Positions 1 to 6,208 of a DNA stretch of 6,208 nt are shown piece by piece. The translations under genes were made by a program, and so were the position numbers. The DNA lies in IMG/VR virus record IMGVR_UViG_2695420382_000003, positions 1 through 6,208 of that record; one strand, 5' to 3'. Under the pieces are notes generated by a model that saw only the letters and a program-made list of their open reading frames with translations, searched no databases and was not told the DNA's origin. The DNA comes from a virus. Its lineage: Duplodnaviria > Heunggongvirae > Uroviricota > Caudoviricetes. The number at the start of each line of letters is the position of its first letter. Position 1 is the stretch's first letter.

Positions 1-1
1 C

Positions 2-109
2 ATCAGTCCGATTAGCAGGGCTTTTAAGTATGCGATTGATGGACTCACCAATAAAAAACGCCCGGTGTGGCAAACCGAGCGTTCTGAACAAATCCAGATG
101 GAGTTCTGA
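2..109 (+). CDS. cII: cII transcriptional activator, 3' end only (5' end lies outside the window)
   Basis: The frame ending at TGA 107-109 translates to ...ISPISRAFKYAIDGLTNKKRPVWQTERSEQIQMEF. The last ~16 residues match the lambda CII C-terminus as I recall it (...TNKKRP..TERSEQIQMEF). It sits directly upstream of O, as in lambdoid phages. The upstream part differs from lambda, suggesting a mosaic allele. Confidence 0.7.
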   Translation: MSPISRAFKYAIDGLTNKKRPVWQTERSEQIQMEF

Positions 110-131
110 GGTCATTACTGGATCTATCAAC
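53..131 (-). ncRNA. oop: oop antisense RNA (~77 nt), overlapping the cII 3' end and ending in an intrinsic terminator
   Basis: The reverse complement of 53-131 reads GTTGATAGATCCAGTAATGACCTCAGAACTCCATCTGGATTTGTTCAGAACGCTCGGTTTGCCACACCGGGCGTTTTTT, which closely matches lambda oop as I recall it. A terminal hairpin (CGCTCGG / CCGGGCG, with one G-U pair) is followed by a U-run (plus-strand A-run at 53-58). Confidence 0.6.
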
Positions 132-138
132 AGGAGTC

Positions 139-167
139 ATTATGACAAATACAGCAAAAATACTCAA
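139..167 (-). promoter_or_regulatory. pO promoter driving oop (sigma70-like)
   Basis: On the minus strand: -35 TTGAGT (plus 162-167), 17-bp spacer, -10 CATAAT (plus 139-144). The predicted start falls ~7 nt downstream, at the oop 5' end (~131). It lies inside the first codons of O, as in lambda. Confidence 0.5.
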
Positions 168-1080
168 CTTCGGCAGAGGTAACTTTGCCGGACAGGAGCG
201 TAATGTGGCAGATCTCGATGATGGTTACGCCAGATTATCAAATATGCTGCTTGAGGCTTATTCAGGCGCAGATCTGACCAAGCGACAGTTTAAAGTGCTG
301 CTTGCCATTCTGCGTAAAACCTATGGGTGGAATAAACCAATGGACAGAATCACCGATTCTCAACTTAGCGAGATGACAAAGTTACCTGTCAAACGGTGCA
401 ATGAAGCCAAGCTAGAACTCGTCAGAATGAATATTATCAAGCAGCAAGGCGGCATGTTTGGACCAAATAAAAACATCTCAGAATGGTGTATCCCTCAAAA
501 CGAGGGAGGTTCCCCCAAAATGAGGGATATCCCTCAAAACGAGGGAAAATCCCCTAAAACGAGGGATAAAACATCCCTCAAATTGGGGGATTGCTATCCC
601 TCAAAACAGGGGGACACAAAAGACACTATTACAAAAGAAAAAAGAAAAGATTATTCGTCCGAGAATTCTGGCGAATCCTCTGACCAGCCAGAAAACGATC
701 TTTCTGTGGTTAAACCGGATGCTGCAATTCAGAGCGGCAGCAAGTGGGGAACAGCAGAAGACCTGACCGCCGCAGAGTGGATGTTTGACATGGTGAAGAC
801 TATCGCGCCATCAGCCAGAAAACCGAATTTTGCTGGGTGGGCTAACGATATCCGCCTGATGCGTGAACGTGACGGACGTAACCACCGCGATATGTGTGTG
901 CTTTTCCGCTGGGCCTGCCAGGACAACTTCTGGTCCGGTAACGTGCTAAGTCCGGCCAAACTCCGCGACAAGTGGACCCAGCTCGAAATCAACCGTAACA
1001 AGCAACAGGCAGGCGTGACAGCCAGCAAACCAAAACTCGACCTGACAAACACTGACTGGATTTACGGGGTGGATTTATGA
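142..1080 (+). CDS. O: Replication initiator protein O (origin-binding), 312 aa
   Basis: The translation is near-identical to lambda O as I recall it (MTNTAKILNFGRGNFAGQERNVADLDDGYARL... WIYGVDL). An AGGAG Shine-Dalgarno precedes the ATG. The iteron array lies inside the coding sequence. The protein is ~13 aa longer than lambda O because of two extra iterons. The stop overlaps the P start (ATGA). Confidence 0.95.
   Translation: MTNTAKILNFGRGNFAGQERNVADLDDGYARLSNMLLEAYSGADLTKRQFKVLLAILRKTYGWNKPMDRITDSQLSEMTKLPVKRCNEAKLELVRMNIIKQQGGMFGPNKNISEWCIPQNEGGSPKMRDIPQNEGKSPKTRDKTSLKLGDCYPSKQGDTKDTITKEKRKDYSSENSGESSDQPENDLSVVKPDAAIQSGSKWGTAEDLTAAEWMFDMVKTIAPSARKPNFAGWANDIRLMRERDGRNHRDMCVLFRWACQDNFWSGNVLSPAKLRDKWTQLEINRNKQQAGVTASKPKLDLTNTDWIYGVDL
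491..614. repeat. Lambda-type replication origin iteron array: six ~17-18 bp dyad-symmetric iterons (TCCCTCAAAACGAGGGA-like) at ~20 bp spacing
   Basis: Direct repeats at 491-507, 511-527, 530-546, 550-566, 574-590 and 597-614. Each has a TCCC(T/C)C arm, an A-rich centre and a (G)AGGGA arm. The first and third copies are identical. Confidence 0.85.
615..655. promoter_or_regulatory. A/T-rich DNA-unwinding segment flanking the iterons
   Basis: ACACAAAAGACACTATTACAAAAGAAAAAAGAAAAGATTATT lies immediately right of the last iteron. This is the same arrangement as the lambda origin. Confidence 0.6.
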
Positions 1081-1778
1081 AAAACATCGCAGCACAGATG
1101 GTTAACTTTGACCGTGAGCAGATGCGTCGGATCGCCAACAACATGCCGGAACAGTACGACGAAAAGCCGCAGGTACAGCAGGTAGCGCAGATCATCAACG
1201 GTGTGTTCAGCCAGTTACTGGCAACTTTCCCGGCGAGCCTGGCTAACCGTGACCAGAACGAACTGAACGAAATCCGCCGCCAGTGGGTTCTGGCTTTCCG
1301 GGAAAACGGGGTCACCACAATGGAACAGGTTAACGCAGGAATGCGCGTAGCCCGTCGGCAGAATCGACCATTTCTGCCATCACCCGGGCAGTTTGTCGCC
1401 TGGTGCCGGGAAGAAGCATCCGTTATTGCCGGACTGCCAAACGTCAGCGAGCTGGTTGATATGGTTTACGAGTATTGCCGGAAGCGAGGCCTGTATCCGG
1501 ATGCGGAGTCTTATCCGTGGAAATCAAACGCGCACTACTGGCTGGTTACCAACCTGTATCAGAACATGCGGGCCAATGCGCTTACTGATGCGGAATTACG
1601 CCGTAAGGCCGCAGATGAGCTTGTCCATATGACTGCGAGAATTAACCGTGGTGAGGCGATCCCTGAACCAGTAAAACAACTTCCTGTCATGGGCGGCAGA
1701 CCTCTAAATCGTGCACAGGCTCTGGCGAAGATCGCAGAACTCAAAGCTAAGTTCGGACTGAAAGGAGCAAGTCTATGA
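1077..1778 (+). CDS. P: Replication protein P (DnaB helicase loader), 233 aa
   Basis: The translation MKNIAAQMVNFDREQMRRIANNMPEQYDEKPQ...KFGLKGASL matches lambda P as I recall it. Its start overlaps the O stop (ATGA) and its stop overlaps the ren start. Confidence 0.95.
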   Translation: MKNIAAQMVNFDREQMRRIANNMPEQYDEKPQVQQVAQIINGVFSQLLATFPASLANRDQNELNEIRRQWVLAFRENGVTTMEQVNAGMRVARRQNRPFLPSPGQFVAWCREEASVIAGLPNVSELVDMVYEYCRKRGLYPDAESYPWKSNAHYWLVTNLYQNMRANALTDAELRRKAADELVHMTARINRGEAIPEPVKQLPVMGGRPLNRAQALAKIAELKAKFGLKGASL

Positions 1779-2065
1779 CGGGCAAAGAAGCAATTATTCA
1801 TTATCTGGAGACGCACAAGAGCTTCTGTGCGCCGGACGTTGCTGCGGTAACAGGCGCAACAGTAACCAGCATAAATCAGGCCGCGGCTAAAATGGCACGG
1901 GCAGGTCTTCTGGTTATCGAAAGTAAGGTCTGGCGAACGGTGTATTACCGGTTCGCTACCAGAGAAGAACGGGAAGGAAAGGTGAGCACGAACCTGATTT
2001 TTAAGGAGTGTCGCCAGAGTGCCGCGATGAAACGGGTATTGGCGGTATATGGAGTTAAAAGATGA
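1775..2065 (+). CDS. ren: Ren protein (rex exclusion relief), 96 aa
   Basis: The translation MTGKEAIIHYLETHKSFCAPDVAAVTGATVTSINQAAAKMARAGLLVIE... matches lambda Ren as I recall it. It is in the canonical position after P. Confidence 0.9.
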   Translation: MTGKEAIIHYLETHKSFCAPDVAAVTGATVTSINQAAAKMARAGLLVIESKVWRTVYYRFATREEREGKVSTNLIFKECRQSAAMKRVLAVYGVKR

Positions 2066-2090
2066 CCATCTACATCACTGAGCTAATAAC

Positions 2091-2123
2091 AGGCCTGCTG
2101 GTAATCGCAGGCCTTTTTATTTG
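2091..2123 (+). terminator. Intrinsic terminator, tR2-like
   Basis: Perfect 8-bp stem AGGCCTGC (2091-2098) / GCAGGCCT (2107-2114) with an 8-nt loop, followed by TTTTTATTTG. It lies just downstream of ren, where lambda tR2 is located. Confidence 0.65.
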
Positions 2124-2243
2124 TATGTAAGCAAAATCGATTTTAAGCCACATAAATAAGCCTGTGGCGACCTAATCATTGCTCGGGCATGTAATTAGGT
2201 GGCGAGATGCAAAAGTTACGCAGAATGCGATTAAGGAGGTTTA

Positions 2244-2714
2244 ATGGTGAGGCAAATATACATGCTTCGCAACGAAGCAATCAGAAATAACGCCATAGAC
2301 GCAATACTCTCACTTCCGATCGACGACAAGTCACCTCACGAAGTCCACGTTAAAGAACCAAAGCGGAGCAATCCTCAAAACCGCCTTATGTGGGCGTTAT
2401 TGCGGGACGTATCGCGTCAGGTGCTTTGGCATGGAGAGAGACTTGCGCCGGAAGACTGGAAAGACCTGTTCACTGCCCTGTGGCTTAAGACCAAAAAACT
2501 GGAGCAACGAAGTGCGCCTGGTATCGACGGTGGCGTTGTTATGCTTGGCGTGCGTACCAGCAAAATGCGAAAGGCCAACATGACTGAGCTTATCGAAATC
2601 ATGTTCTGGTTCGGCTCAGAGCGCAACGTGCGGTGGAGTGATGACTCCCGGCGAGAGTATGAATGGTCACAACGGAAAGGTAACACGGACAATATGCGAG
2701 GGTTGAATGATTAA
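2244..2714 (+). CDS. ninB: NinB (Orf-family recombination mediator), 156 aa
   Basis: A strong Shine-Dalgarno (AAGGAGGT) sits 4 nt upstream of the ATG. The translation shares conserved blocks with lambda NinB as I recall them (NPQNRLMWALLRDVSRQVLWHGERL..WK..FTA; ..TSKM...E..ELIE....FG.ER.V.WSD). Confidence 0.85.
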   Translation: MVRQIYMLRNEAIRNNAIDAILSLPIDDKSPHEVHVKEPKRSNPQNRLMWALLRDVSRQVLWHGERLAPEDWKDLFTALWLKTKKLEQRSAPGIDGGVVMLGVRTSKMRKANMTELIEIMFWFGSERNVRWSDDSRREYEWSQRKGNTDNMRGLND

Positions 2715-3237
2715 GCATAAATCAGAAACACCAAAAGAAGTTAGAGACTGCTGGAAAACGCCGCTTTGGCTTTTTGATGCACTGGATATTGAGTTTGGAT
2801 TCTGGCTGGATTCGGCAGCGAGCGACAAAAATGCTCTGTGTGCTCACTGGCTAACTGAGGCCGACGACGCGCTCAATTCTGAGTGGGTAAGCCACGGTGC
2901 AATCTGGAATAACCCACCGTACAGCAATATCAGGCCGTGGGTGGAAAAAGCCGCTGAGCAGTGCATACAACAGCGACAGACGGTAGTTATGCTTGTGCCA
3001 GAGGATATGTCAGTCGGATGGTTCAGCAAGGCTCTGGAGAGTGTCGACGAAGTTCGCATTATCACTGATGGACGGATTAATTTTATCGAACCATCGACAG
3101 GGCTGGAGAAGAAGGGAAACAGCAAAGGCTCCATGCTGCTGATTTGGCGACCGTTCATCAGTCCTCGACGGATGTTTACTACCGTATCCAAAGCGGCATT
3201 GATGGCGATCGGGCAGGGCGTCAGGAGGGCAGAATGA
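2707..3237 (+). CDS. Phage orphan DNA N6-adenine methyltransferase (Dam-like), 176 aa
   Basis: The translation contains the catalytic NPPY motif (..[11 protein letters not shown]..) typical of N6-adenine methyltransferases. Its size and layout fit the phage Dam-type family. The start overlaps the ninB stop and the stop overlaps the ninE start. No adjacent restriction endonuclease gene is present. Confidence 0.8.
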
Positions 3238-3410
3238 GACGACAGCGACGAAGCATCACCGACATCATCTGCGAAAACTGCAAATACCTTCCAACGAAGC
3301 GCTCCAGAAATAAACGCAAGCCAATCCCAAAAGAATCTGACGTAAAAACCTTCAACTACACGGCTCACCTGTGGGATATCCGGTGGCTAAGACATCGTGC
3401 GAGGAAATGA
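3234..3410 (+). CDS. ninE: NinE, 58 aa
   Basis: The translation [58 protein letters not shown] matches lambda NinE as I recall it. The start is the ATG at 3234, internal to the longer 88-aa track ORF, and overlaps the methyltransferase stop (ATGA). Confidence 0.85.
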
Positions 3411-3451
3411 CTATTTATCCGGTGCGCCGCCAGAATGACGGCGCGGTGTGG

Positions 3452-3760
3452 TTAAACGAAGCGGATCTGGAGTTTTTTTCCAGTAGCGCGGGCGAATTTT
3501 TTTAGGGTGGCAAATGATGGGCCGCTGATACCTGATGCGAGATTACTTTCCATTCTGGTGATCGCGGTCGCTTTTGTTCCCATTCGCTCGGCAACTTCAG
3601 CCTGAGTTAAGCCAGCTTCTTTGCGTGCTGCCAGCATTTCATCAAGCAGTGCGAATTCGTCAGCGATAGCGTCGTATTCTGCTTTAAAAGCCGGGTCTTC
3701 CATCCATTTGGCTGCCATTTCGTCGTGTGTCATGGTGGGGAGAGTGCGTTTACCAGTCAT
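3452..3760 (-). CDS. XRE-family HTH antitoxin (HigA-like), 102 aa
   Basis: A perfect Shine-Dalgarno AAGGAGGT lies 5 nt upstream of the ATG, inside the toxin 3' end. The translation has a helix-turn-helix signature (GLTQAEVAERMGTKATAITRMESN) and a C-terminal tail (LKKFARATGKKLQIRFV) typical of antitoxins partnered with Gp49/HigB-like toxins. It overlaps the upstream toxin ORF by 11 nt. Confidence 0.8.
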   Translation of the reverse strand: MTGKRTLPTMTHDEMAAKWMEDPAFKAEYDAIADEFALLDEMLAARKEAGLTQAEVAERMGTKATAITRMESNLASGISGPSFATLKKFARATGKKLQIRFV

Positions 3761-4079
3761 GCTTAACCTCCTTCATTCTGGTTTCAGCTTTCTTGCGTTC
3801 GGCTGGCGGTGTTTTCTGCGTTTTCTTTACAAAACTATGCAGCATGATGATGCGTTTCCCTGTCAGAGTGCAGTAAAAAACACGCGCGATCCCATCGTTG
3901 CCTTTAATTCTGAGTTCGAAAAGCCCGTCACCAAAGGCGCTGGTGTGAGGTTCTCCGAGATTGCTGCCATATATCTTCATACGTTCAACGAGATGTTGGT
4001 ATCGGGCACGCATACTCAATGGAAGCCGATCGACTTCCAGCCTTACATCTTCACTGTAGTATTCGATAGTGTAGTTCAT
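3750..4079 (-). CDS. RelE/ParE-superfamily toxin (HigB / Gp49-like), ~109 aa
   Basis: The translation from the ATG at 4079 is MNYTIEYYSEDVRLEVDRLP...GDGLFELRIKGNDGIARVFYCTLTGKRIIMLHSFVKKTQKTPPAERKKAETRMKEVKHDW. The C-terminal H.F.KKTQKTP..E...A motif is characteristic of Gp49-like RelE-family toxins. The gene order is toxin first, antitoxin second, as in higBA. The start is uncertain: ATG at 4091 is an alternative, the 154-aa track ORF start at 4214 is unlikely, and there is no obvious Shine-Dalgarno. Confidence 0.75.
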   Translation of the reverse strand: MNYTIEYYSEDVRLEVDRLPLSMRARYQHLVERMKIYGSNLGEPHTSAFGDGLFELRIKGNDGIARVFYCTLTGKRIIMLHSFVKKTQKTPPAERKKAETRMKEVKHDW

Positions 4080-4124
4080 AGGTATCAACATAACAAAATC
4101 GTTATATGCATTCAAGGCCTGTAG

Positions 4125-4154
4125 TTGACGACAACACATATCCGGGGCTATATT
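4125..4154 (+). promoter_or_regulatory. Candidate sigma70 promoter reading rightward
   Basis: -35 TTGACG (4125-4130), 18-bp spacer, -10 TATATT (4149-4154). The predicted start is near 4161. It overlaps the left arm of the 10-bp inverted repeat. Confidence 0.35.
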
Positions 4155-4201
4155 CCTCACGCGCCAGCAAAATCTGGCGTCGGGATTGGAACCCCGGATA
4201 T
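4138..4201. repeat. Nested palindrome: perfect 10-bp inverted repeat ATATCCGGGG / CCCCGGATAT enclosing an inner 6-bp inverted repeat CGCCAG / CTGGCG
   Basis: Outer arms are at 4138-4147 and 4192-4201. Inner arms are at 4162-4167 and 4174-4179, and TTCC (4153-4156) pairs with GGAA (4188-4191). The two centres are within 1 bp of each other. This is a candidate operator, or an RNA hairpin if transcribed. Confidence 0.6.
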
Positions 4202-4214
4202 CGAAACGGTGCAT

Positions 4215-4234
4215 ACCGCGCTGGCGGTTTTTTT
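4215..4234 (+). terminator. Candidate short intrinsic terminator or attenuator (+ strand only)
   Basis: 5-bp GC-rich stem ACCGC / GCGGT with a GCTG tetraloop, followed by a 7-T run (4228-4234). The stem is short, so this call is tentative. Confidence 0.35.
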
Positions 4235-4397
4235 ATGCGCTAAGCACAGTCACATTCGCGATTTATGGCGGGCTGTGTGGGGGCACCGAAAGGTGCGCCG
4301 GATGTTTCGACCGGTAGTTCCAACCCTGCACAGTTCGCCACCCGATGATTGGAACCTGAAGGTGGTGAGGTAAAAATTATCGAAACGCGAGGTCGTT

Positions 4398-5084
4398 ATG
4401 ACTGTTCAAGTTGCTGTCAAAAACCTTTCCCCTGTCACTTATAACCAGATTCCTGTAATCACAACTGAGTTACTCGCCCGCCTTTACGGAACAGAAGCAA
4501 TCCGTATACAGCAGAATCACCATGAAAATAAATCTCGATTTATTGAGGGAAAACACTTCTTTAAAGCTGTTGGTGATGAGCTCAAAAATTTGCGACTAGT
4601 TTTAAACGAGTCGCAAAATGAGGTGAAAATTTCTCCAAAAACCCGCTCCCTCATCCTCTGGACAGAACGCGGCGCAGCTCGTCACGCGAAGATGCTCGAA
4701 ACCGATCAGGCATGGGACGTGTTCGAAAAACTGGAAGACTGCTATTTCAGCCAGACTTCGAAAAGCGCAGGTCATCACGAGAAGAAAACCAGCGAGCTTT
4801 CTGCAAAAGATGCAAACAGTCTGGTATGGTTGTGGGATTATGCCAACCGCTCACAGGCATTATTCCGCGAACTGTATCCGGCGCTAAGACAAATTCAGTC
4901 TAACTATTCCGGCAGATGCCACGACTACGGTCATGAGTTCTCGTATGTTATCGGAATGGCGAGAGACGTTTTAATCAATCACACACGAGATGTTGATATT
5001 AATGAGCCAGACGGACCAACGAATCTTTCTGCATGGGTAAGACTTAAGAACAAAGAATTACCTCCTTCACTACATCACTACTGA
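4398..5084 (+). CDS. ORF6N (KilA-N-like) domain protein with an uncharacterised C-terminal half, 228 aa
   Basis: GAGG lies 5 nt upstream of the ATG. The N-terminal ~115 aa carry an ORF6N-like signature ([36 protein letters not shown] ... [34 protein letters not shown]). The C-terminal ~110 aa match no family I recognise. Confidence 0.8.
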
Positions 5085-5102
5085 CAGATTGCCAACGCAA
5101 CG

Positions 5103-5126
5103 ACCCAGCTTCGGCTGGGTTTTTTA
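5103..5126 (+). terminator. Intrinsic terminator
   Basis: 7-bp stem ACCCAGC / GCTGGGT with a TTCG tetraloop, followed by TTTTTTAT. It lies 19 nt after the stop of the ORF6N gene. Confidence 0.75.
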
Positions 5127-5158
5127 TTGCTGAATTTTCAATATGAGAGGACATGACA

Positions 5159-5413
5159 ATGAACGAGCTGATAAATAGCAACGCCATTAAAATGACCAGC
5201 ATTGAAATCGCTGAGTTGGTGGGTAAGCGTCATGACAATGTGAAACGTACCATCGAAACGCTGGTTAAAAGTGGAGTTATCCGGCTTCCTCAAATTGAGG
5301 TTTCCGAAAGAATCAATAAATTAGGGTTCAATGTTCAGTACGAGCATTACGTCTTCGAAGGCGAACAAGGTAAGCGCGACAGCATTATTGTCGTTGAAGG
5401 AGGTGTTGCATGA
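5159..5413 (+). CDS. Stand-alone Rha-domain (Phage_pRha-like) small DNA-binding protein, ~84 aa
   Basis: The translation has the Rha-family N-terminal signature (MTSIEIAELVGKRHDNVKRTIETL). GAGAGG lies 8 nt upstream of the ATG at 5159; the track start at 5153 is too close to that Shine-Dalgarno. The stop overlaps the start of the next gene (ATGA). Confidence 0.7.
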   Translation: MNELINSNAIKMTSIEIAELVGKRHDNVKRTIETLVKSGVIRLPQIEVSERINKLGFNVQYEHYVFEGEQGKRDSIIVVEGGVA

Positions 5414-6180
5414 ATGCCGTAATTATTGCCAACGCAGAAATCGTGCCGATTGAGTTTAATGGCGAGCGTGTTGTTACGTATCAAATGATTGCTGATATTC
5501 ACGGGGTTCCAGTAGCCACTATTCAAAATGGCTATGCGCGAAACTCTGAGTATTTCATAGACAGGGAAGATACATATTTTATTGATTTTCATGAAAATAC
5601 CTTTAGAAGGGGTTTTGAAATTCCTCCTCGTGGCATGCGAGTTTTCACTGAATCAGGCTATTTGATGCTGGTTAAAACCCTGCGCGACGAGACGGCGTGG
5701 AGAGTGCAACGTGAGCTTGTTCGCAATTATTTTCGTGGCCAAAAAGAAGATAAGTCAGCCTTGCCCGACTTCACAAACCCTGCTGAAGCCGCCAGAGCGT
5801 GGGCAAACGAATATGAGCAGAAAGTGAAGCTGGAGCAACAACTCGCGATTGCCGCACCTAAAGTTGAGTTTGCCGATCGCGTTGGCGAGGCCAGCGGAAT
5901 TTTGATTGGAAACTTTGCAAAGGTTGTTGGTATTGGCCCAAACAAACTGTTTGCGTGGATGCGTGATCACAAAATCCTTATTGCTTCAGGTTCCCGGCGC
6001 AATGTGCCAATGCAGGAATATATGGATCGCGGCTATTTCACAGTGAAAGAAACAGCGGTCAACACAAATCACGGAATACAGATATCGTTCACCACAAAAA
6101 TCACCGGGCGTGGTCAACAGTGGCTGACCAGAAAGCTGCTCGATAACGGAATGCTGAAAGTAACAGGGGAGGCTGCATGA
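5410..6180 (+). CDS. Phage antirepressor-like protein, ORF6N-like N-terminal domain plus KilA-C C-terminal domain (Roi-like), 256 aa
   Basis: The N-terminal domain parallels the 4398 gene (..VVTYQMIADIHGVPVATIQNGYARNSEYFIDREDTYF...RVFTESGYLMLVKTLRDETAWRVQRELVRNYF). The C-terminal half (PDFTNPAEAARAWANEYEQKVKLEQQLAIAAPKVEFADRV...GYFTVKETAVNTNHGIQISFTTKITGRGQQWL) has the KilA-C / Ant C-terminal signature. Its nin-region position is consistent with HK022-type Roi, but I cannot confirm that identity from memory. Confidence 0.85.
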   Translation: MNAVIIANAEIVPIEFNGERVVTYQMIADIHGVPVATIQNGYARNSEYFIDREDTYFIDFHENTFRRGFEIPPRGMRVFTESGYLMLVKTLRDETAWRVQRELVRNYFRGQKEDKSALPDFTNPAEAARAWANEYEQKVKLEQQLAIAAPKVEFADRVGEASGILIGNFAKVVGIGPNKLFAWMRDHKILIASGSRRNVPMQEYMDRGYFTVKETAVNTNHGIQISFTTKITGRGQQWLTRKLLDNGMLKVTGEAA

Positions 6181-6208
6181 ATGAGTACAGATTCACGCTT
6201 CCATACCC
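6177..6208 (+). CDS. 5' end of the next nin-region gene (partial, product unknown)
   Basis: The ATG at 6177 overlaps the preceding stop in the same ATGA arrangement seen at four other gene junctions in this window. GGGGAGG lies 4 nt upstream. Only ~10 codons are visible (MNEYRFTLPY...). The ATG at 6181 is an alternative start. Confidence 0.3.
   Translation, partial: MNEYRFTLPY

Follow-up and report, generated by a model that had tools for sequence, protein, structure and literature searches.

The DNA analysed here is a 6,208-nt stretch from a virus of the Caudoviricetes (IMG/VR record IMGVR_UViG_2695420382_000003, positions 1 to 6,208), and is referred to throughout as the window. Its open reading frames (ORFs) and Pfam matches mark it as the early-right/nin region of a lambdoid prophage of Escherichia coli/Shigella that resembles the Shiga toxin (Stx) phages; the immunity region lies outside it. 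The closest complete genome is that of E. coli FDAARGOS_944, with 97.4% identity over 86% of the window. The gene under study, ant, is, to judge by its sequence, an already known and annotated lambdoid antirepressor of the Stx-phage type, in which an ORF6N domain is joined to the C-terminal module of the Ant protein of phage P22. In the 270 bp upstream of ant lie a promoter, an IsrK-like small RNA (sRNA) and a C4 antisense RNA, and the RNA matches lie above the Rfam gathering scores (Table 1).

A preliminary description of this DNA, made from the letters alone, had placed a gene at 4398-5084, exactly where a plus-strand ORF of 228 residues with an ATG start lies, and had assigned its N-terminal half to ORF6N, as Pfam also does (E 2.6e-20, 73 bits vs a cutoff of 27.8, covering 3-86 of the 86 profile positions). 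The C-terminal half, which it could not place, is recognised in a profile search as P22_AR_C (E 2.2e-28, 98.6 bits vs a cutoff of 22.4, covering all 73 profile positions), an outcome that the description itself had named as refuting it, and in a pairwise alignment residues 125-228 are identical to residues 197-300 of P22 Ant at 91 of 104 positions (88%, E 5e-71). Searched against phage genomes with tblastn, the same residues are 87-91% identical to Ant of P22, epsilon34 and their relatives; upstream of residue 125, BLASTP shows no similarity to P22 Ant. A match to phrog_377 ("anti-repressor Ant") takes in the full length of the protein (E 4e-79), and the C-terminal half alone matches both phrog_377 and phrog_245 (also "anti-repressor Ant"). 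Identity to Ant of VT2-Sakai (NP_050534) is 73.4% over 100% of the query, and a RefSeq "phage antirepressor Ant" is 98% identical. The identical protein is already present in NCBI as "phage antirepressor Ant" and occurs on 55 contigs from Shigella flexneri and other Enterobacteriaceae; NCBIfam holds no model for it. The GenBank record of P22 itself remarks on the similarity to the ant genes of VT2-Sa and 933W. The preliminary description had left the function open among antirepressor, anti-defence protein and defence effector; the origin of the C-terminal half in the archetypal antirepressor, and the name Ant in RefSeq and NCBI, point to the first of these.

At the DNA level, homology of 86-87% to P22 ant runs from gene nucleotide 379 (codon 127) through the stop codon and the terminator (87.4% over window positions 4776-5125), and the terminator, which begins 18 nt after the ant stop, lies within this common stretch. 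The P22-like tail of ant is, by this pattern, a clean modular exchange. The DNA joints fall at domain boundaries, and to this extent the general idea of module shuffling in the preliminary description holds. Most Stx-phage ant genes have 84-95% DNA identity to the window gene only downstream of 4624-4644 (gene nucleotides ~227-247) and ~72% identity or no match upstream of it, a pattern that indicates a second, putative mosaic joint inside the ORF6N domain.

The IsrK/C4 leader directly upstream of ant was missed in the preliminary description. Between the -10 block of its promoter and the start of the IsrK match lie 6 nt; neither the -35 nor the -10 block varies in an alignment with Gifsy-1 and E. 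coli FDAARGOS_944, and the promoter is the counterpart of the Gifsy-1 isrK promoter. The predicted fold of C4 has a long closing stem and two hairpins (minimum free energy -46 kcal/mol, z -4.9) and leaves two short elements, a' and b', unpaired. Their complements occur twice, as b1 and a1 within IsrK and as b2 and a2 upstream of ant; this downstream target region (4349-4392) is predicted to be unstructured on its own, and a single nucleotide separates a2 from the ant Shine-Dalgarno sequence (SD), the two being adjacent and not overlapping. An upstream ORF (uORF), which corresponds in position to Gifsy-1 orf45, comes to its stop 49 nt short of the ant ATG. It measures 15-45 codons across the eight leaders examined (the window, L001 and L004-L009), and Gifsy-1 is the only one in which it overlaps the main start codon; since both features vary in this way, the uORF is probably not conserved as a protein, which suggests that coupling of the orf45 type is lineage-specific. 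The IsrK/C4 cassette is already known in kind. The leader occurs in ~250 phage records, mostly of Stx phages, and precedes varied genes of the Bro network (ORF6N with P22AR-C, ORF6N with another C-terminus, Bro-N with another C-terminus, Bro-N with P22AR-C, and Rha); the order a1b1, C4, antirepressor gene is also found in Gifsy-1 and in six other phage loci examined (L003 and L005-L009 of the comparison set).

Table 1. Features of the window. Positions are counted from its first nucleotide; domain positions within Ant are also given in residues.
Feature	Position	Strand	Basis or remark
Replication gene O	142-1080	+	ORF, Pfam
P	1077-1778	+	ORF, Pfam
ren	1775-2065	+	ORF, Pfam
NinB	2244-2714	+	ORF, Pfam
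Dam-type methyltransferase	2707-3237	+	ORF, Pfam
NinE		+	after the Dam-type methyltransferase
HigA-like helix-turn-helix (HTH) antitoxin	3452-3760	minus	Pfam
Gp49/RelE-family toxin	3750 to ~4031	minus	Pfam
Sigma-70-like promoter (TTGACG, 18-nt spacer, TATATT)	4125-4154	+	consensus scan, 10/12 matches
c4-a1b1 element	4148-4200	+	Rfam, 50.1 bits (gathering 46.7)
IsrK-like small RNA	4161-4235	+	Rfam isrK, 4161-4234, 72.1 bits (gathering 50); overlaps c4-a1b1
Target b1, UUGGAAC	4186-4192		loop of IsrK hairpin 2 (predicted fold)
Target a1, UCGAAACG	4201-4208		in IsrK
IsrK intrinsic terminator, hairpin and U-run	4215-4228 (hairpin)		terminator scan
C4-type antisense RNA	4261-4345	+	Rfam C4, 75.2 bits (gathering 45)
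uORF, 27 codons	4265-4348	+	from a conserved AUG at the C4 5' end
a' element, GUUUCGA	4304-4310		loop of C4 hairpin B
b' element, GUUCCAA	4317-4323		internal single strand of C4
Target b2, UUGGAAC	4349-4355	+	
Target a2, UCGAAACG	4380-4387	+	ends 10 nt before the AUG
ant Shine-Dalgarno sequence, GAGG	4389-4392	+	
ant coding sequence, 228 residues, ATG start	4398-5084	+	ORF, Pfam, PHROG, BLAST
ORF6N domain	residues 12-99, nt 4431-4694		Pfam PF10543
Linker	~residues 119-135		
P22AR C-terminal domain	residues 128-200, nt 4779-4997		Pfam PF10548
P22 Ant homology	residues 125-228, nt 4770-5081		
Intrinsic terminator (8-bp GC-rich stem, UUCG loop, U-run)	5102-5128	+	terminator scan; fold z -3.9
86-residue ORF, 5' remnant of roi	5153-5413	+	identity to Roi, DNA homology
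256-residue ORF6N + KilAC protein	5410-6180	+	Pfam, Roi identity, DNA joints

Ten leaders were aligned for the analysis of pairing, giving 70 cells for the b element (7 pairs x 10 leaders). The b' element is complementary to b1 and to b2 in 70/70 cells each, with compensatory change at 4/7 pairs; none of 500 shuffles reached the score, and all slid controls collapsed. The ten leaders fall into four pairing classes, namely GGAAC (the window), GGCGU (most), CGAAC and GGUCU. For an independent test, leaders were picked from IMG/VR by the b1 hairpin alone and counted among the matches listed. Leaders with b1 GGAAC carry b' GUUCCAA in 69/70 cases and b2 UUGGAAC in 56/70, and those with b1 GGCGU carry b' ACGCCAA in 51/52 and b2 UUGGCGU in 50/52; no cross-class combination of b1 and b' was present among these 122 leaders (120/122 class-matched). 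The a' element is complementary to a1 and a2 and changes in parallel with them among phages, its own helices reaching 6-12 bp in 9/10 leaders. A longest-helix cross-matrix for the a elements was set aside as too noisy to prove class specificity, and covariation counts were used in place of global duplex energies. On this pattern of complementarity, the loop elements of C4 are predicted to pair with two target copies, the b element being kept by compensatory change, and the matched b1/b'/b2 triplets in more than 120 distinct leaders imply continued selection on the control system.

Several other leaders have features of their own. In phage Nil2 (L003, 2194-3888) ant is interrupted (antA/antB), by a bacterial retrotransposon according to its annotation, and the segment inserted there has an Rfam match to sRNA-Xcc1 at 3086-3169 (79.3 bits, above threshold). 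In Salmonella phage 118970_sal3 (L010, 1044-2186) an annotated coding sequence of 380 residues, "putative antirepressor", spans both IsrK (1398-1474) and C4 (1499-1586); its 5' part is probably over-extended, the real Rha-type gene starting after C4. VT2phi_272 (L006, 1538-2450) and other Stx2a phages have a second IsrK/C4 leader, of another pairing class (UUCGAAC), which precedes an ORF6N protein with another C-terminus and lies beside an addiction-module antidote gene; therefore one phage can hold two leader-antirepressor cassettes.

Between ninE and the ant leader sits a HigB/HigA-like toxin-antitoxin pair on the minus strand (3411-4124). As a raw ORF of 154 residues, the toxin enters the IsrK promoter on the opposite strand; Pfam and the PGAP annotation favour a shorter form of 92 residues. 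In VT2-Sakai the leader follows directly after ninE (L005, 1486 to 1501) with no toxin-antitoxin pair between them, and for this reason the pair in the window looks like an insertion of ~0.7 kb. Its presence beside ant, together with weak PADLOC matches of the ORF6N half to the candidate system PDC-S05 (E 3e-6 to 2e-3), could be taken to favour a role of Ant as an anti-defence or defence effector. These matches are confined to the shuffled N-terminal domain and concern a candidate system only, however, and PADLOC gave none for the C-terminal domain; all strong similarities of the protein are to antirepressors, and the adjacency of the toxin-antitoxin pair is not conserved, as VT2-Sakai demonstrates. 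We rejected a defence or anti-defence role on the PADLOC results and regard it as highly improbable. Further upstream, the O gene contains six direct repeats of ~18 nt (489-612, consensus TATCCCTCAAAACGAGGG, spacing 19-24 nt), which are typical lambdoid ori iterons and appear in the protein as a repeated IPQNEGxSPKxRD motif.

Downstream of ant, the preliminary description had recognised three consecutive genes for Rha/ORF6N-type modules, the middle one a stand-alone Rha domain. Modules of these types are present by Pfam, but the middle gene is no independent module. Its 86-residue product scores 30.4 bits against Phage_pRha (cutoff 29.9), over profile positions 1-27 only, and is 64% identical to residues 1-81 of Roi from phage Nil2, with the first 24 residues identical; it represents the first ~81 residues of Roi, left by a segment replacement inside roi. 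The last gene does encode a fusion to KilA-C, as had been stated (ORF6N E 1.7e-10, KilAC/ANT E 3.1e-33), and its N-terminal domain is a diverged paralogue of that of Ant, again as proposed (25% identity over 116 residues in a pairwise BLASTP alignment, E 1e-8); residues 125-256 are 89% identical to the C-terminus of Roi. DNA homology to roi covers 5088-5396 and 5815-6176, and in place of 121 bp of roi a foreign segment of 418 bp (5397-5814) adds a stop codon, an ATGA restart and the ORF6N module. Read from these homologies, the three consecutive modules consist of ant and of a roi gene that a module replacement has split, with a truncated remnant in the middle. The possibility that the 86- and 256-residue ORFs are halves of one frameshifted gene was rejected, as both align to the same region of phrog_63 and the DNA bears the marks of a segment replacement. 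In E. coli FDAARGOS_944 (L001, 9194-9888) the split-roi gene is also frameshifted.

A further reading makes ant an unused relic, an intact-looking gene in a decaying prophage that is silenced by its RNA leader and has no current function. The split of the neighbouring roi, the frameshifts in cII and in the KilAC gene that the closest complete genome has in this prophage region, and the interruption of ant in Nil2 would fit this explanation. The ORF, SD, promoter, leader RNAs and terminator are all intact, however, the identical protein recurs on the 55 contigs, and b1, b' and b2 are matched across more than 120 distinct leaders, all of which make a relic quite improbable.

The C-terminal domain had been described as unrecognisable, which does not hold, as it belongs to a named family; in favour of the preliminary description, no solved structure resembles the domain and no specific structural relative was found. 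A PDB sequence search with the full protein gave no relative, only a chance HTH match at E 0.87. The AlphaFold2 model of residues 115-228 (mean predicted local distance difference test score 72.7, from an alignment of 17 sequences) shows a disordered linker (~115-131) followed by three helices, of which two form a long hairpin and the third is short. The P22AR-C family is narrow, with 33 representative clusters among 1.84 billion proteins, and its members are nearly all enterobacterial, with ORF6N, P22_AR_N, KilA-N or Bro-N as partners. In the literature we found no function mapped to the P22AR C-terminal domain itself. Named and tied to a well-studied protein, the domain may serve in repressor contact or in oligomerisation.

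Were it only to oligomerise, the ORF6N domain, which is KilA-N/Bro-like, could make Ant a regulator that binds phage DNA at operators or promoters. Against this stand the 88% identity of the C-terminal domain to that of P22 Ant, a protein described as repressor-binding (PMC3064807), and the interpretation of Gifsy-1 AnrP, which has the same ORF6N domain, as an anti-repressor; no DNA target is evident in the window. We consider a DNA-binding regulator improbable.

Comparison with P22 brings out both the shared module and its different setting. P22 Ant (AAF75059, from immI) has 300 residues and consists of P22_AR_N (E 4.6e-44) and P22_AR_C, whereas the window protein has ORF6N in place of the former and shares with it the C-terminal 104 residues. 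Each gene belongs to an "ant moron" that is regulated independently and controlled by antisense RNA (PMC2629481), that of P22 in the immI region of the late operon and that of the window in the nin region of a lambdoid prophage. ORF and Pfam searches found no arc- or mnt-like ORF flanking the window ant, and no sar; the IsrK/C4 leader is there instead. The literature describes P22 Ant as a protein that binds the repressor and inactivates it (PMC3064807).

Among the closest known systems are those of the Stx phages VT2-Sakai, 933W, Phi24B and 2851, in which Ant has the same ORF6N + P22_AR_C architecture and ant lies in the same position, after ninE and before roi (the synteny in VT2-Sakai being ninB-dam-ninE-leader-ant-roi), behind the same IsrK/C4 leader. 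VT2-Sakai DNA is collinear with window positions 4139-5152, with UUGGCGU as its pairing class vs UUGGAAC in the window; the window differs further in the toxin-antitoxin pair inserted upstream and in the split roi downstream. In Phi24B, the last 104 residues of the ant product are 82% identical to P22 Ant (Fogg et al., PMC3064807), and deletion of ant left the activity of the late promoter pR' at ~27-56% of wild type after norfloxacin, a defect complemented by a plasmid copy (PMC3064807).

In the isrK-orf45-anrP-isrJ locus of the Salmonella prophage Gifsy-1, promoter, a1b1/IsrK, C4 (the STnc1160 region), antirepressor gene and terminator follow one another as they do in the window, and the series around anrP (STM2616) reads a1b1, isrK, C4, anrP, isrJ. 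The ORF6N halves of AnrP and the window Ant are 62% identical, but AnrP ends in an unrelated C-terminus of 67 residues and lacks P22_AR_C. The loci also differ in that orf45 overlaps anrP whereas the window uORF ends 49 nt upstream of ant, and in that the Gifsy-1 locus is downstream of Q and the window locus upstream; Rfam gave no isrJ match after ant within the window. Transcription from the Gifsy-1 isrK promoter continues past the terminator of IsrK into orf45-anrP to give an mRNA that is translationally silent (PMC4825925, Hershko-Shalev 2016). Translation of anrP is activated more than 100-fold when IsrK is provided in trans. AnrP, which is interpreted as an anti-repressor, raises transcription of the antQ operon and induces the prophage (PMC4825925).

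In the immI operons of P1 and P7 (c4 - icd - ant), the antirepressor operon has a leader that yields a C4-family RNA by processing, and the targets of this RNA are duplicated, upstream (a1b1) and downstream beside a ribosome-binding site. C4 in these phages reportedly acts as a translational repressor (Citron and Schuster 1990; Biere et al. 1992). The discrete leader classes of the window type resemble P1 vs P7; in the window, no icd-like gene lies between C4 and ant, and the targets abut the SD of ant itself. Rfam places C4 and c4-a1b1 in one clan, and the C4 and isrK profiles are related to P4 CI and seqA (PMC10111431). Control of antirepressors by small RNAs is also found in N15 (CA RNA) and P22 (PMC10732415).

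From these comparisons, we consider it likely that the window gene encodes an Ant-type antirepressor that is silenced by C4 in the lysogen, freed by IsrK and/or by read-through from pR, and then binds a CI-type repressor and speeds lytic commitment. The region 4125-5128 would be a self-contained "ant moron" in the nin region, with its own promoter, RNA leader and terminator. Its promoter would produce the short IsrK RNA, and read-through of the IsrK terminator a long leader-ant mRNA. By analogy with P1 and P7, C4 would be cut from the leader and repress translation, with a' and b' pairing with b2 and with the a2 copy that ends 1 nt before the SD, so that ant would remain untranslated in the lysogen. 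IsrK, following the activation seen in Gifsy-1, would relieve this block when abundant through its decoy copies b1 and a1. After induction, N-antiterminated transcription from pR would also read through ant. Ant would then bind a CI/c2-type repressor non-covalently, as P22 Ant does, taking it off its operators and accelerating lytic commitment, and the phenotype expected on induction would be that of Phi24B. The orf45 coupling step probably does not apply to the window, and the simpler reading would be a direct occlusion beside the SD, of the P1/P7 immI kind. The domains, the RNA elements with their complementarity and covariation, and the mosaic joints were established from the sequences; the activities in this scheme are carried over from P22 Ant, Phi24B, Gifsy-1 and P1/P7.

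Several points weigh against this mechanism or parts of it. The C-terminal domain may not be the part that binds the repressor, because Gifsy-1 AnrP induces without a P22AR-C domain. The effect of Ant may be modest, since the Phi24B ant knock-out had no effect on superinfection immunity (PMC3064807). The translational coupling of orf45 and anrP in Gifsy-1 is not transferable as it stands, as the window uORF lacks the overlap. The complementarity of the a elements is just 7-8 bp, and in a crude and noisy cross-phage control the background helices reach 5-8 bp. Lastly, the global duplex energies of C4 with the downstream region and of C4 with IsrK were no better than those of shuffles.

An explanation that overlaps with a C4-silenced antirepressor, and is not exclusive of it, is cross-talk, in which Ant acts in trans on the repressors of other lambdoid prophages or satellites, as P22 Ant inactivates the lambda repressor, while IsrK and C4 act in trans on leaders of the same class and so couple or insulate induction in polylysogens. 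Trans-acting antirepressors reportedly coordinate the Gifsy prophages (PMC3121763), some Stx phages have two such leaders, and the pairing classes of the leaders are discrete, none of the listed leaders being mixed. Deletion of ant in Phi24B altered the induction of its own prophage, however, for which a role in cis suffices, and we hold cross-talk to be somewhat unlikely.

As posed in the preliminary description, the gene is of little importance, being a routinely annotated antirepressor whose "mystery" domain is the C-terminal domain of P22 Ant, a textbook protein. The natural hybrids, in which P22_AR_N, ORF6N, Bro-N or KilA-N is joined to P22AR-C, or ORF6N to other C-termini, are material with which the repressor-binding half can be found. 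The IsrK/C4 switch, with its discrete classes, could influence which lambdoid prophages, Stx phages included, are induced in strains with several prophages. Annotation pipelines record the stretch that holds the RNA leader as intergenic or as hypothetical ORFs. Tentatively, and with slightly more confidence than in cross-talk as set out above, we propose that the leaders of lambdoid ant genes may form a class-specific, RNA-based "anti-immunity" network, in which C4 silences and IsrK activates the ant of co-resident or incoming phages of the same class, and P22AR-C, with ~88% identity between P22 and the E. coli/Shigella prophages, gives Ant a broad repressor range. At least four pairing classes were seen, that of the window being UUGGAAC/UCGAAAC. 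As a corollary, IsrK would act mainly as a decoy for C4 (STnc1160) and not via orf45 coupling, as neither the length nor the overlap of the uORF is conserved. If true, such a network would decide which prophages, including Stx phages, are co-induced in polylysogens.

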